Assembly (NCBI GenBank): GCA_028873295.1 | Contig: JAGWKO010000001.1 | Location: 19,409-83,408, forward strand | Direction of reading: 5' to 3' | From: Verrucomicrobiota bacterium | GTDB taxonomy: Bacteria; Chlamydiota; Chlamydiia; Chlamydiales; SM23-39 | Length of the DNA stretch: 64,000 nucleotides | Part shown: in pieces, positions 17,853-38,978 of the stretch | Position numbering within the stretch: position 1 is the stretch's first letter | How the letters are laid out: each line of letters begins with the position of its first letter | Notes under the pieces: model-generated | Told to the model about the DNA's origin: nothing | The model's database searches: none | The model's input: the letters and a program-made list of their open reading frames with translations, nothing else | Translations under genes and position numbers: made by a program

Positions 17853-19640
17853 TTAAGAAACATCTGCAGCGCAGCGAAACCCATAGGTGCCATTAACGGC
17901 TCCGGGGTTGTTGCGATGGCGATGGGAACAGCGCATATCTTCTTTAAGGCTCTTCCAGCATCCCCCCCGCAGGATGCGATAAACCCCCTGATTTGGACCC
18001 TTGGGAGCTTGCGGCTCGATTAGCGAATGCTCATAGGCGTTGTAGGCATACCAGTCAGAACACCACTCATACACATTGCCCGCCATATCGTAGAGGCCGA
18101 AGCCATTGGGAGGATAACTCTGCACAGCTGTCGTATCAGAGCTGAAGAAATTGGCATGGGTGCGCTCTATATTCTCCCCTGTCGGATAAAGAATACCGCT
18201 CTGTCCCCCCATCGCAGCGGCTTCCCACTCCGCCTCGGTAGGCAGTCTCTTCCCAACCCACTTTGCATAAGCGATGGCCCCATACCAGGTTACGCCCACT
18301 ACGGGATGCCTTGCATACCCTGACTCAATCGTTACCTTACCTCCGCTGCGCTTGATTCGCGCATCGCGCAAACGAATCATATCACAGTTGTTGTGGTCCT
18401 TCTCGCCTCCCATTGCCTGTAGAAAACGCAGGAACTGCTCATTTGTAATAGGGTGAATATCAATAGCAAAACTGGGAAGATGCACCTGATGGCGCGGCAT
18501 CTCATCGCGCGCACCTCCAGAACTTCCCCGCCACCAGGTTCCCCCAGGAATGACAACCATCTCTGTAAGGAGTGGCTCTACTTCGAGATAGGTAGACTGC
18601 TTTGGCGTATAGTGCGACACCCCAGAGTCGCGGTGAAATATAGCTCCTGGATCGGGTTCAAATTCAGGCCGTTCGATTTTTGACTCTTGCAAGAGAGGTT
18701 TTTGAGAAGCTGATTGCTCCTCTGCCACAGGAAAAGAAAAAGCCATTTGCTGCGCATGATCAATAATTGGCCCCAGTTCCGAAGAAGGAACCAGCTCCGG
18801 AGAAAGAGAGCGCGGCGCATGAAGGTACTCTTCAAGCGCTTGTTGCAGCTTTTGAGGGCGAAGCAGTGGATTGCTCTGCAGGCAGCGCGAGATAAGAAGA
18901 TCCCAGTGATAGGAGAGGCCAGGCAAAAGCTTGGAAGGAAGATCAAAGTGTCCCTCAGGCCATTTGGATGTTAGAAAATAGTAGGCCAGTATGCCAAAAG
19001 CATAGCTATCTGCCCGTGCATCAATCAGCTGGAAATCAAGAGCCTTTTGCTCCGGAGCAAGACAGGAAAAGCCCTGGAGAAAATGGCGATGCGACTCAAG
19101 AGCTGTCTGCCCCACAGACTCCGCTGCTTTGCGGCAAAGCGAAAGAAGATAGTGTTTCTCCCCTACCATGCGCACAAGACCAAAATCGGAAAGAAGAACT
19201 CTCTGTTCTTGCGGAAGGATAAAAAGGTTGGTGGGCTTAAGCGCTCCGTGAAAAATCCCCTGCTCGTGTGCATAGTCAAGAACTGAGGCAAGCTGTCCAA
19301 GAAGAAAGAAAATCTCCTCTTCTGAAAGCTTTCTTTTTCCTTTCTGCAAAAAGTGGTCCAAATGAAACGCCTCTTTCTCTTCAAGAAGAGGATCGGCAAC
19401 AAGGAAATAGAAGCCCTCATGGAAAGAGGCGCTGTAAATAGGCAAAAGATTGGGATGATTCAGGTTGGCAATAGCCGCGATCTCTGCTTCAAAACGACGC
19501 CCAAAAGAGGGATCACTGCAGAATTCATCAGAGAGTTTTTTAAGAACAAATGGACGCTTGAGGAAACGATGCTCCGCAAGATAGCAGGGACCGAAAACCC
19601 CAGAGCCAAGCTCTCTTTGAAGAATGTAATCACCCCACAC
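17853..19640 (-). CDS. pkn1: Ser/Thr kinase-like domain fused to FGE/SUMF1 (formylglycine-generating enzyme) domain, Pkn1-type
   Basis: LGSGVFG, VLKK, DFG and APE motifs. The catalytic loop reads HGALKPTN instead of HRDLKxxN. The C-terminal part is an FGE-sulfatase-like domain (GVTWYGAIAYAKWVGKRLPTEAEWE..RGGCW). Confidence 0.75.
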   Translation of the reverse strand: MWGDYILQRELGSGVFGPCYLAEHRFLKRPFVLKKLSDEFCSDPSFGRRFEAEIAAIANLNHPNLLPIYSASFHEGFYFLVADPLLEEKEAFHLDHFLQKGKRKLSEEEIFFLLGQLASVLDYAHEQGIFHGALKPTNLFILPQEQRVLLSDFGLVRMVGEKHYLLSLCRKAAESVGQTALESHRHFLQGFSCLAPEQKALDFQLIDARADSYAFGILAYYFLTSKWPEGHFDLPSKLLPGLSYHWDLLISRCLQSNPLLRPQKLQQALEEYLHAPRSLSPELVPSSELGPIIDHAQQMAFSFPVAEEQSASQKPLLQESKIERPEFEPDPGAIFHRDSGVSHYTPKQSTYLEVEPLLTEMVVIPGGTWWRGSSGGARDEMPRHQVHLPSFAIDIHPITNEQFLRFLQAMGGEKDHNNCDMIRLRDARIKRSGGKVTIESGYARHPVVGVTWYGAIAYAKWVGKRLPTEAEWEAAAMGGQSGILYPTGENIERTHANFFSSDTTAVQSYPPNGFGLYDMAGNVYEWCSDWYAYNAYEHSLIEPQAPKGPNQGVYRILRGGCWKSLKEDMRCSHRHRNNPGAVNGTYGFRCAADVS

Positions 19641-25462: not shown

Positions 25463-26644
25463 ATGAAATTCGTCTCGTGGATCTGCACTTTTTTTTCCGC
25501 ACTTCTGCTCTTTGCAGATCAGCCTTCCAGTTTTGAGCGAACAGCCAAAGAGACTGTTTTACCACAAACGATCCATGTTCTTCTTGAAAAAGAGGTTGAC
25601 GAAGCCCTTCTCGAGGTAAGAGGGCCCTATTACCTCTTCGATCCGCAGAATGGTTCGCGAATCACCGCTGGCCTTCTTGACAAGCGCTTTATGATTCGCG
25701 AGCTCGCCTCTGGGCTCAAGTGGGGAGAAAAATTTTCCGGCATCCATCAATTCTACGTAAAGCCGAGATCCCCCGACACCTCCATTTTCATCAATGGGAT
25801 TCAGTACTCTGGCTCTGTCTATTTTTATGGAGTTGGTGGAAAACTGCATATTGTCAATGAGATCGATATTGAGTCCTATGTGAAAGCAGTTTTGACAACG
25901 CAATTTCCCACTCCGATGGAACCGGAAGTGATGGCAGCGGTTGCCATTGCTGCTCGTACCTCTGCTTACTACAAAGCGTTAAAAGGGCGAGGCAGCTTTT
26001 GGCATGTCGATGCAAAAGAAGAAGGGTATATGGGAAGCGCTCTGATTGTCGCCCGTTCTCCGATTGAAAGAGCTGTTGACTCCACAAAGCAGCTTATCCT
26101 TCTCTACTCTCACGAAGAGAGAAACAGTCCTTTCCTTGCCTCCTGGACAGAACATAGCGCCGGGAAAACGGCCGCTTACGAAGCGATCTTTCGCAGATCG
26201 GAAGATGGACCTCAAGGCGTGGAAGCGCCACATGCCAAACTTGCGCGGCAAGAATCGAAGTGGAGCTATCAAATTTCCAAAAAAGCATTCTGCTCCCTCT
26301 TTCATCTCTCCTCTTTAAACGCTCTGGAACTGTTCTGCGACGCTTCTTCCGGCAAGGTTTATGCTCTACGCTGCAACAAGGGAGGGAATGAAAGCTCTGA
26401 TATCGAATTTGTCTCTCTACAGCGCATTCTTGGGAAAGAACATCTTCTCAGCTCAGACTTCACGGTAACACTTAAAGACGATCAACTCCTTTTTGCCGGT
26501 TATGGCAAGGGACATGGAGTGGGGCTCTGCCTCTATTCAGCCTCTGCTCTTGTGCAAAACGGAGAGAACGCGGTTAAAATCCTCAACAAGTTTTTCCCGG
26601 AGACATATCTGTGCAATGTCGGTACATTGCCGAGCGTACGGTAG
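25463..26644 (+). CDS. spoIID: SpoIID/LytB-domain protein
   Basis: Signal peptide. The central region (YVKAVLTTQFPTPMEPEVMAAVAIAARTSAYY) and GHGVGLC near the C-terminus are typical of SpoIID. Confidence 0.75.
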   Translation: MKFVSWICTFFSALLLFADQPSSFERTAKETVLPQTIHVLLEKEVDEALLEVRGPYYLFDPQNGSRITAGLLDKRFMIRELASGLKWGEKFSGIHQFYVKPRSPDTSIFINGIQYSGSVYFYGVGGKLHIVNEIDIESYVKAVLTTQFPTPMEPEVMAAVAIAARTSAYYKALKGRGSFWHVDAKEEGYMGSALIVARSPIERAVDSTKQLILLYSHEERNSPFLASWTEHSAGKTAAYEAIFRRSEDGPQGVEAPHAKLARQESKWSYQISKKAFCSLFHLSSLNALELFCDASSGKVYALRCNKGGNESSDIEFVSLQRILGKEHLLSSDFTVTLKDDQLLFAGYGKGHGVGLCLYSASALVQNGENAVKILNKFFPETYLCNVGTLPSVR

Positions 26645-27942
26645 GATTTTTTTTTCTCCTCCCTCTCCTCTGCTCATCTCTTTCTCTATTTGGGGAAGAT
26701 CCCTTGTCTCTAATAATCATGGGTTATGGGGGTAGGGCCCAATGGTTGCTTTTGGAATGTTTAAAGCAGAAAGGAGAAATTTCAGTCATCGCAATCTGTG
26801 ACGATCGAGCAGAAGAATGTCTCGATTACATGCAGAATGAATCGCATCTTCTTAATCCTGAATTAAAATCAAAGTATGACGCAGCTGTGCAGCAGGTTGC
26901 TCTTTATTCGGATTCTCCAGAAGACATTCGCAAAATGTTGCAAAACCATCAAGAAACAGATCTGATTTGGATTACCTCAAGAAATGACCGTCATTTCTTG
27001 CATCTCACTGAAGTTTTACAGTACTCTTCCTGTCAAAGGATTTTCATGGAAAAACCCCTCTTTCGAACACTCGATGAATTCGAGCGTTTTGATTGGGGAC
27101 TTGTTAAAGAGAGAGAGGTGGTCATTGGACTGACCCTTCGCTACTCGACAATGGCAACAATCGTAGCAGAATGGCTACAAGAACATTCTCATCTACTTGG
27201 GAAACTACAGAATGTGCAAGCTTGGGAGCATCTTGCCTTCTCACACGCACTTCATTCTTTTGTCTTGGGAACTCGTTGCCATCGTAGTATGTGGGGGGGG
27301 CTTTTGCTTGAAAAATCAATCCACGATCTTGATTTAGCGCTTTTGTGTGTTTCTAAATGTGGGTTCTCCCCATCAAAAATCGATATTGAAACAACCGCTG
27401 CGAATCGTTTTTTCACCAACTCAAATCGAGAGGAAATTCTCCAGTATTGCGACGATTCATTAAGTATTATTGTAGATCAACATCTAGCAAACTATCCATT
27501 GGATGACAACTTTTTTATGAGCGATTTCATTCCTGATTATCATCGCTGTTCCGCGCGCCTTTTTTCTGAAGAGAGTGATCCTATCGATGTAGAAGTAGAA
27601 ACTGATATGAGCTCCTACCGCGAACAAATGGAACGTGCAGTTCTTCTTTCTTTTGAAAAAGGTCAACTTTTAGTCGATATCATGGCAAGCTGCATGACTG
27701 TTACTTATGAAGATGGCACATGCTCAAACATCGATCTTCACACCAATTATGGGGGACATGCGGACGGAGATCGTTACGTGATCAAGACGATTTTAAAAGA
27801 AAAAATGTCGAGCGATCATTTTTATGTCACAATTACGGACAAAATTGTGAAACTTGCTAATTTCATCGCTCTAGTTTCAGAAAAGCAAGCGGTTGAAAAT
27901 ACACCAAAAAAACATGAAAAGTTTGACTTTAGAGGTAATTAG
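26611..27942 (+). CDS. Gfo/Idh/MocA-like oxidoreductase (3' end replaced by MITE insertion)
   Basis: Rossmann N-terminus (IIMGYGGRAQ..AICDD..DLIWITSRNDRHF..MEKPL). The present stop codon TAG 27940..27942 lies inside the element TIR. Confidence 0.6.
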   Translation: MQCRYIAERTVGFFFLLPLLCSSLSLFGEDPLSLIIMGYGGRAQWLLLECLKQKGEISVIAICDDRAEECLDYMQNESHLLNPELKSKYDAAVQQVALYSDSPEDIRKMLQNHQETDLIWITSRNDRHFLHLTEVLQYSSCQRIFMEKPLFRTLDEFERFDWGLVKEREVVIGLTLRYSTMATIVAEWLQEHSHLLGKLQNVQAWEHLAFSHALHSFVLGTRCHRSMWGGLLLEKSIHDLDLALLCVSKCGFSPSKIDIETTAANRFFTNSNREEILQYCDDSLSIIVDQHLANYPLDDNFFMSDFIPDYHRCSARLFSEESDPIDVEVETDMSSYREQMERAVLLSFEKGQLLVDIMASCMTVTYEDGTCSNIDLHTNYGGHADGDRYVIKTILKEKMSSDHFYVTITDKIVKLANFIALVSEKQAVENTPKKHEKFDFRGN

Positions 27943-28301
27943 TCACGGGGTGCGGGAAGAGGGCAACCACTAAGTTGCTTTTACTCACTGCCGCCCTCGG
28001 TCTTGGTCGCTGCGCTCCCGCGCCTCGGTTGCCACCCTCCATTTGGAGCTACCGCTCCAAATGTAGGGCTATGTAGTCAACGATTCCTGTAGAGACAAAG
28101 CATCTTTATGTTGGAGTTATACAAAAGATTTTGCTACCATTCCTACTACTATGAAGCCGACCTACGAGCAACTTGAACAGATTGTCCTCAATCAACAAAA
28201 GACGATCCTCGACCAGCAAAAAATGATCGTTGAGCTGAGGAAAACCATTCAGACACTGCAAGAAAAGGTGGCGACTCTCGAAGCACCCCGTGACTAATTA
28301 C
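27935..28301 (+). mobile_element. 367-bp MITE / internally deleted IS (IS66-family-like) with 19-bp perfect TIRs and 8-bp TSD
   Basis: TIR GTAATTAGTCACGGGGTGC at 27935..27953, with its reverse complement at 28283..28301. Direct repeat CTTTAGAG at 27927..27934 and 28302..28309. A residual 48-codon coiled-coil ORF lies at 28151..28297. Confidence 0.8.
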
Positions 28302-28343
28302 CTTTAGAGCGTATGAAAGCGCCGAAATTTGCAGGTTGGGCTC

Positions 28344-29135
28344 ATGAAAATATTCAATATCTCCCCTTTTTGGGGGACAAGCATATTTTGTTCCTTTGGA
28401 TATCTATTTGGCGAAATGCTACCTCCAGCCTCGATACCAGAGACATTGTTCGATGCCTATACTCTGCACGAGCAAATACCTGTGGAGCAACACTACTTAA
28501 ATGACACATGTATCAGTCCCATTAAGTATACAAAAAATGAAGTTGATTTTTTTTTGGGAAAAGCTGCGCGTAGAGAGGCCAATTATTACGGGATCACTGA
28601 TCTTTGGTTCTACGACGCTCTCGAAGATTTCTCCGAACATTTCCTAAATCAAGAAGTTGCAATTATTGGTTCTACTGTTCCATGGTATGAGAGTATTGTT
28701 TTACATTTTGGAGGAAAACCATTTACAATAGACTACAATCCGATTACCGTAGAAGACTCCAGACTTTCTGCAATAACTGTAGCAGAATATCAGCGGAATC
28801 CAAGGCAATTCGATGTTGTAGTCTCGATTTCAAGTTATGAGCATGATGGTCTAGGAAGATATGGAGATCTTCTTGATCCTAACGGAGACCTAAAAGCGAT
28901 GGAAGAATGCAAACGCATGCTTAAACCGAATGGCATTCTCATACTTGCTGTTCCTGTTGGCCCAGACCTTTTGGTCTGGAATGCTCATCGCATTTATGGC
29001 AAATTACGTCTACCGATGCTTCTCAATGGTTGGCGTATAATAAAGAGTTATGGTTTTGACCCTCTGGATTTTTTGGAATACCAAGTCGATCATCACCAGC
29101 CAATCTTCGTCCTGACAAAGAACCTATCCCAGTAA
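28344..29135 (+). CDS. DUF268-like putative SAM-dependent methyltransferase
   Basis: VAIIGSTVPWYE..FDVVVSISSYEHDGLGRYGD..LKPNGILILAVPVG..HRIYG matches my memory of the DUF268 family, which is mostly nematode. ATG 28344 is preferred over TTG 28329. Confidence 0.55.
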   Translation: MKIFNISPFWGTSIFCSFGYLFGEMLPPASIPETLFDAYTLHEQIPVEQHYLNDTCISPIKYTKNEVDFFLGKAARREANYYGITDLWFYDALEDFSEHFLNQEVAIIGSTVPWYESIVLHFGGKPFTIDYNPITVEDSRLSAITVAEYQRNPRQFDVVVSISSYEHDGLGRYGDLLDPNGDLKAMEECKRMLKPNGILILAVPVGPDLLVWNAHRIYGKLRLPMLLNGWRIIKSYGFDPLDFLEYQVDHHQPIFVLTKNLSQ

Positions 29136-38948: not shown

Positions 38949-38978
38949 TTGACAATTAAATTGAATGGATGCTATAAT
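38949..38978 (+). promoter_or_regulatory. Putative promoter TTGACA-18 nt-TATAAT for second F-box gene
   Basis: Perfect hexamers. The spacer shares ATTAAATTG with the 11091..11119 promoter. The -10 element lies inside the longest ORF, which favours ATG 38992 as the start. Confidence 0.5.

Follow-up and report, generated by a model that had tools for sequence, protein, structure and literature searches.

A 367-bp element at the end of an oxidoreductase gene of a Chlamydiales bacterium, very probably an internally deleted derivative of an ISBst12-group IS66 insertion sequence

A stretch of 64,000 nucleotides from a Verrucomicrobiota bacterium (Chlamydiales, lineage SM23-39; assembly GCA_028873295.1, contig JAGWKO010000001.1, forward-strand positions 19,409 to 83,408), hereafter called the window, contains a 367-bp element (27935-28301) that interrupts the end of a gene for a GFO/IDH/MocA-type oxidoreductase. 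This element is very probably an internally deleted, non-autonomous derivative of an insertion sequence (IS) of the IS66 family, namely of the ISBst12 group, whose members carry a single open reading frame (ORF). An earlier note, made from the sequence alone, had presented it as a miniature inverted-repeat transposable element (MITE) that was recently inserted, clipped the oxidoreductase gene and broke an ancestral ATGA coupling with the downstream gene. Every base of the element as described there was reproduced, including its 19-bp inverted repeats and the flanking 8-bp direct repeat.

The terminal inverted repeats are perfect, with 19 of 19 positions of GTAATTAGTCACGGGGTGC complementary between the two ends, as determined with a repeat finder, a pattern search and a script. 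Both tips begin with GTAATTAGTCAC, that is, with a 5'-GTAA start, and the element is directly abutted on either side by an exact copy (8/8) of the direct repeat CTTTAGAG. A mismatch-tolerant pattern search for GTAATTAGTCACGGGGTGC with up to three mismatches returned just two matches across the 64-kb window, compared with 0.01 expected, which rules out a chance inverted repeat. By a rough estimate, a perfect 19-bp inverted repeat within 400 bp together with an abutting 8-bp direct repeat would be expected about 1e-9 times per window. An assembly chimera was likewise ruled out, since excision of the element joins both flanks into one continuous reading frame. Within these boundaries, the element consists of 348 bp of a left end (repeat, 197-bp leader and 44 codons) joined straight to the 19-bp right repeat. 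Where the two parts meet, at the inner edge of this right repeat, the internal deletion junction reads GAA|GCACCCC; any further copies would be recognizable by the sequence GTAATTAGTCACGGGG on either strand.

The consequences for the oxidoreductase gene are equally clear. Excision in silico of positions 27935-28309, comprising the element and one repeat copy, yields a 453-residue ORF that ends in ...KFDFRAYESAEICRLGS and is followed by TGA (28345-28347). The empty site predicted in this way reads ...GACTTTAGAG joined directly to CGTATGAAAG. In the present gene, the last 12 residues are replaced by two (GN) and the stop codon is supplied by the element, as had been claimed, while 375 bp now lie between the remainder of the old gene end and its former position, and likewise between the oxidoreductase gene and the downstream DUF268 gene. 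In an alignment of 11 homologues, the C-terminal tail that follows ...ALVSE(K/E)Q(A/V) is poorly conserved and varies in length between 5 and about 30 residues. As orthologues vary here in both length and sequence, the lost tail was probably dispensable. In the proposed course of events, an IS66-type DDE transposase would have inserted either the element or the full-length parent at the target CTTTAGAG, which lies 12 codons short of the oxidoreductase gene end, thereby generating the 8-bp duplication that is typical of the family. The parent would have lost about 1.2-1.4 kb, including the zinc-finger and DDE catalytic domains, either before or after this step.

The internal ORF (28151-28297) comprises 48 codons, runs into the right repeat and encodes the same peptide that the earlier note had interpreted as the N-terminus of a transposase whose body was deleted. 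For comparison, 109 ISBst12-like transposases were drawn from the listed matches, and a profile was prepared from their N-terminal parts as far as the PPSSD motif. The remnant peptide aligned colinearly with this profile at 19.4 bits, a score that was reached by none of 2000 shuffled peptides (maximum 15.4 bits), and the reversed peptide scored 3.4 bits. Heptad-block permutations attained the score of the peptide in 2 of 718 cases. Among the 1208 ORFs of at least 30 codons found in a six-frame scan of the window, the remnant ORF was the sole match to the profile, with 20.6 bits (E = 2.5e-5), compared with 4.6 bits for the runner-up. In the protein alignment, the peptide ends in ...KVATLE at the point where its relatives run on with (D/T/A)Q(L/I)N(K/R)NSKNSSKPPS(S/T)D, and its residues 45-48 (APRD) as well as the stop codon come from the right inverted repeat. 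On the basis of sequence, this ORF can thus be assigned to the N-terminus of a deleted transposase, as supported by the profile test and by the full-length relatives described below, which start with MKPTYEQLE. No coding sequence for a DDE domain or a zinc finger was found in the element or elsewhere in the window. Because no DDE_Tnp_IS66 transposase is encoded, the element is to be regarded as a non-autonomous derivative and not as an insertion sequence in its own right.

Table 1. Features of the element and its two flanking genes (positions in the window).
Feature	Position	Strand	Remarks
GFO_IDH_MocA-family oxidoreductase gene	26611..27942	+	Ends ...KFDFRGN; TAG 27940-27942 lies inside the left repeat
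Target-site duplication, left copy, CTTTAGAG	27927..27934	.	Inside the oxidoreductase coding sequence
Left terminal inverted repeat GTAATTAGTCACGGGGTGC	27935..27953	+	Bases 6-8 are TAG 27940-27942, the current oxidoreductase stop
Leader, from left repeat to transposase start codon	27954..28150	+	197 bp, G+C-rich, hairpin-rich
Transposase codons 1-44 (assigned to ISBst12-type IS66), N-terminal coiled coil ending ...KVATLE	28151..28282	+	Supported by profile and relatives
Right terminal inverted repeat	28283..28301	-	On the + strand, codons 45-48 (APRD) and TAA stop of the remnant ORF
Target-site duplication, right copy, CTTTAGAG	28302..28309	.	
Former oxidoreductase 3' end	28310..28347	+	12 codons AYESAEICRLGS and TGA 28345-28347; first base of the A codon is the duplicated G
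DUF268-domain gene	28344..29135	+	Start at ATG 28344 (263 aa) or ATG 28416 (239 aa, MDE3055118.1)

A scan of metagenomes with the back-translated remnant peptide identified three matches, two of which belong to IS66-type elements. The first of these (L012, Ga0210096_1007248) is a complete element of 1573 bp with 27-bp perfect inverted repeats, GTAAATGTTCACCTCACCCCCTCCTTC, that start with GTAA, and with an 8-bp duplication, CTTTTTTT. Its single ORF encodes 469 amino acids, begins with MKPTYEQLEQ and contains DDE_Tnp_IS66 (E = 2e-31), zf-IS66 and DUF6444 domains. The second (L011, Ga0181593_10089536) is cut by the end of its contig. Its left end, GTAATCGGTCACGGGGGTG, equals the window repeat in 16 of 18 positions with one indel, and its ORF begins with MKPTYEQLE and is 49% identical to residues 1-44 of the peptide. 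On the same contig, this IS66-type relative (1809-2537) is situated 220 bp downstream of an ORF of 412 residues (352-1590), which by eye looks like a transposase of the IS256/Mutator type; the arrangement would then represent a nest of insertion sequences. The third match (L013) was rejected because it belongs to an unrelated lipoprotein whose coiled coil is likewise Q/K-rich. This putative lipoprotein of 234 residues (2311-3015) holds QQNKTILDQQKTLLDQQQKMIDQELR, which resembles NQQKTILDQQKMIVELR of the remnant peptide, and exhibits no transposase features; the likeness is read as a chance similarity of Q/K-rich coiled coils.

Comparison with described elements places the window element closest to the ISBst12 group, which includes ISBst12, ISGka4 and ISDge4 and consists of single-ORF elements of about 1.5-1.7 kb. 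The transposase of ISGka4 on plasmid pHTA426 carries the DDE_Tnp_IS66, zf-IS66 and DUF6444 domains, and this element has the ends GTAACTATTCAGCCCGTAC and GTATCTATTCAGCCCAGTAC and the 8-bp duplication AACTCGTC. The ends GTAACTATTCA and GTAACTGCTCAGC occur in ISBst12 proper (L007) and in a copy from Dethiobacteria (L008). For the Dethiobacteria copy, the 8-bp duplication AAATATAT was identified; no clean target duplication was seen beside the ISBst12 copy. An end of the form GTAAyTnnTCA is common to ISGka4, ISBst12, the Dethiobacteria copy, L011 and L012. For ISDge4, the ends GTAACTGCTCAGCA, an 8-bp duplication and a single ORF have been described (PMC12898284). The window element shares with this group the GTAAyTnnTCA-form ends, the 8-bp duplication, a transposase start located 65-216 bp inside the left end, and an N-terminal coiled coil ending in ...R(I/V)xxLE before the KNSxNSSKPPSSD motif. 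It differs from the group in lacking everything beyond codon 44, and with it the zinc finger and the DDE domain, in having T instead of C at position 5 of the inverted repeat, and in its longer, G+C-rich leader. L011 and L012 resemble it in the MKPTYEQLE start of the transposase, L011 additionally in its left end and L012 in its GTAA ends and 8-bp duplication, whereas the 44-49% amino-acid identity over 44 codons sets both apart, as do, for L012, the 27-bp repeats with their different inner sequence. With the canonical IS66 group (IS66 and IS679, with the genes tnpA-tnpB-tnpC), the element has in common the GTAA tip and the 8-bp duplication (PMC11946415), but it retains no trace of tnpA or tnpB and its own relatives are single-ORF elements. 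The GTAA ends and the 8-bp duplication, which the earlier note had named among IS66-family traits, were found to be shared with ISBst12-group elements. End sequence, duplication and N-terminal homology all agree with this placement, and the family's DDE transposase is missing from the element.

Several observations weigh against this placement. The inverted repeat departs from the GTAAGCG start described for IS66, which has 20-30-bp inverted repeats and 8-bp duplications (PMC11946415). A profile of full-length transposases gives the remnant ORF just 8 bits (E = 0.066), though it still ranks first, and the peptide alone reaches no IS66 model of Pfam or NCBIfam, including Pfam DUF6444 and LZ_Tnp_IS66; its matches in these collections are to generic coiled-coil families such as SlyX and DivIC. 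A word-indexed protein search requiring at least three shared 5-residue words returned no candidate for the peptide, and an exhaustive HMMER search of 1.84 billion representative proteins produced a single, spurious low-complexity match (P0045). In a library of this size, a 44-residue match at about 45% identity falls short of significance. Moreover, the ORF of L012 shares the first ten residues of the peptide and was nonetheless missed by the word-indexed search, so that negative results from the protein collection need to be treated with caution; the L012 transposase ORF is evidently absent from that collection. Finally, the searches did not uncover the actual parent. The closest relatives, L011 and L012, exhibit 44-49% amino-acid and 50-56% nucleotide identity over 44 codons and are consequently too distant for either to be the parent.

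In length, the leader of the element exceeds those of L011 (65 bp) and L012 (118 bp) by about 100-150 bp. It contains a 15-bp hairpin, in which 28035-28049 pairs with 28054-28068, and its region 27954-28100 has a G+C content of about 50%, compared with about 40% in the flanks. The whole element, taken as RNA, has a predicted fold with z = -7. The leader could itself be a nested insertion. Within 27500-28700, no Rfam family, sigma-70-like promoter or intrinsic terminator was found.

Multi-copy status is what defines a MITE family. The window element is small, has terminal inverted repeats and a target duplication, encodes no transposase and has altered a reading frame by insertion into a gene end, all of which it shares with bacterial MITEs, the IS-derived miniature elements such as MITEAba12 (reviewed in PMC10969869). 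In contrast to MITE families, it is known from one copy, and a recognizable piece of transposase coding sequence is still present. Owing to this retained piece, the element looks like a first-generation deletion derivative, for which "internally deleted, MITE-like derivative" is the most fitting name. The designation proposed in the earlier note fits its anatomy, whereas a multi-copy status would be no more than a possibility. The search for copies and for a full-length parent that had been suggested there led to the distant full-length relatives L011 and L012, but to no further copy and no parent. No second copy exists within the window, and the exact 19-mer repeat had no matches in collections of genome contigs and metagenome contigs, neither of which contains the window's own genome. 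Searches of plasmids with the element (blastn) and with the peptide (tblastn) also returned no match, and an exact look-up in a gene-position index recorded neither the peptide nor the DUF268 protein.

These results bear on the question whether the 367-bp form ever moved, as a true MITE would with a transposase supplied in trans. With almost even chances, a full-length ISBst12-type element may have inserted at this site and lost its interior later, in which case the short form never transposed and no MITE family exists. Such a deletion in place would agree with the single copy known from the window and from the genome and metagenome collections, although this count leaves aside the remainder of the metagenome-assembled genome. 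It would also agree with the structure of the repeats. Their complementarity stops exactly at the fusion point of the deletion, compared with 27-bp repeats in L012, and the original repeats may have been longer than 19 bp, the deletion having taken the inner part of the right one. A cut of this kind could even have disabled mobility, but both ends needed by a transposase are intact over 19 bp. The date of the insertion can be narrowed down only to a limited extent. The intact 48-codon frame and the still-open relic of 12 codons are compatible with the recent insertion put forward in the earlier note and fall short of proof. The identical repeat positions that can be compared amount to 27, of which 19 are selected for transposase binding and eight include coding sequence; as most of them are functionally constrained, divergence is bounded only loosely.

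The intact frame also raises the possibility that the remnant ORF is functional. Truncated transposases of other elements inhibit transposition, and a free coiled-coil peptide might, by analogy, bind the dimerisation region of the parental transposase and act in the same way. The ORF is indeed intact, has kept its original ATG and spans the coiled-coil segment that aligns with transposase N-termini. Yet ATG 28151 has no Shine-Dalgarno-like sequence in front of it, the search for promoter-like sites was negative, an open frame of 48 codons would be expected anyway if the deletion were recent, and there are no sibling copies in which conservation could be compared. A functional peptide is therefore considered very unlikely. 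Still more improbable is the further idea that the element is kept because its peptide poisons the multimerisation of a cognate IS66-type transposase, which would make it a self-limiting, element-encoded inhibitor. To our knowledge, an element-encoded transposition inhibitor of this kind has not been described for the IS66 family.

Downstream of the element, the reconstructed oxidoreductase end ...LGS TGA (28345-28347) overlaps ATG 28344 of the DUF268-domain gene as ATGA (domain match in Pfam, E = 1.6e-33). This arrangement, which the earlier note had obtained by the same excision in silico, was reproduced, and the seven other junctions listed there all read ATGA or TCAT. It is likely that the two genes overlapped in this way before the insertion; translational coupling between them would then have been lost with it. 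According to a crude gene model, an in-frame ATGA overlap occurs in 7 of 35 same-strand neighboring gene pairs of the window. By rough inference, a reconstructed stop codon would land on an in-frame ATG as ATGA in a few percent of cases by chance, versus 20% of the same-strand junctions in the window.

A less probable alternative accepts the same element but assumes that coupling was never present, in that the DUF268 gene starts at ATG 28416 and was preceded by an ancestral spacer of 68 nt. Indeed, the depositor's protein MDE3055118.1 is the 239-residue form with this start, and the 263-aa (28344) and 268-aa (28329) forms are absent from the record and from the collection. Furthermore, residues 1-24 of the long form, beginning with MKIFNISPFWGTS..., are just moderately hydrophobic. 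On the other hand, the DUF268 frame is open from 28317, and the start of MDE3055118.1 lies 72 nt past the first ATG of this open frame (28344-28415). The depositor's start calls are also doubtful here, because the annotation trims the oxidoreductase as well: MDE3055117.1, with 412 aa, begins later than the ORF at 26611 and omits a hydrophobic leader (26611-26703) that is present in all oxidoreductase orthologues. The exact ATGA coincidence, at the frequencies given above, likewise speaks against a start at 28416.

The genomic context of homologues adds to the case against ancestral coupling. Four loci that carry homologues of the oxidoreductase at 52-62% identity were compared, and their neighboring genes are neither DUF268 nor SpoIID genes. 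Spacers of 78, 218 and 338 bp precede the same-strand downstream genes at three of them, and at the fourth the next gene is converging. The ATGA junction that the earlier note predicted for orthologous loci without the element is consequently not present there; at this identity, the loci are too distant to act as an empty site or to allow a fair comparison. No empty site was found in public data, where the closest homologue of the oxidoreductase reaches 62% identity and shows no conserved synteny, and no close relative of the DUF268 protein was found in the genome contig collection. An ATGA overlap before the insertion remains the favored arrangement, while the depositor's start and the homologous loci speak against the broken coupling.

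The depositor's proteins for the locus are MDE3055116-MDE3055120 (locus tags KGI80_...), and the window lies on an 89-kb contig of this metagenome-assembled genome. According to Pfam, the element is preceded by a SpoIID-like gene and the GFO_IDH_MocA oxidoreductase gene and followed by the DUF268-domain gene, an opposite-strand gene without a family and an AAA_14/DUF4143 ATPase gene. Farther away, ruvB, gyrA, gyrB, tmk, an RNase HII-family gene and genes for transporters of the CorC and MgtE types are located, and the presence of these housekeeping genes indicates that the window is chromosomal. The homologues of the oxidoreductase (L001, L002, L004, L005) occur in variable clusters together with glycosyltransferases, methyltransferases and sugar aminotransferases, which suggests that the oxidoreductase and DUF268 genes of the window are part of a fast-changing surface-glycan locus. 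Elsewhere in the window, an ORF of 379 residues (38965-40104, plus strand) contains F-box (E = 2.6e-7) and F-box-like (E = 2.8e-6) domains. The F-box is a eukaryote-type domain; bacteria that possess it are typically symbionts or pathogens of protists, and its presence hints at a host-associated lifestyle.

Overall, the locus represents a clean textbook case of an insertion-sequence remnant that rewrites a gene end and holds nothing unexpected for the specialist. Its practical value does not go beyond the annotation of this metagenome-assembled genome: a mobile-element remnant should be entered for the 367 bp, the C-terminus of the oxidoreductase should be recorded as element-derived, and the start codons of both flanking genes merit review. 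A new biological question would be opened only if the remnant peptide proved to be functional. For the IS66 family, the element adds one more lineage to the ISBst12 group.

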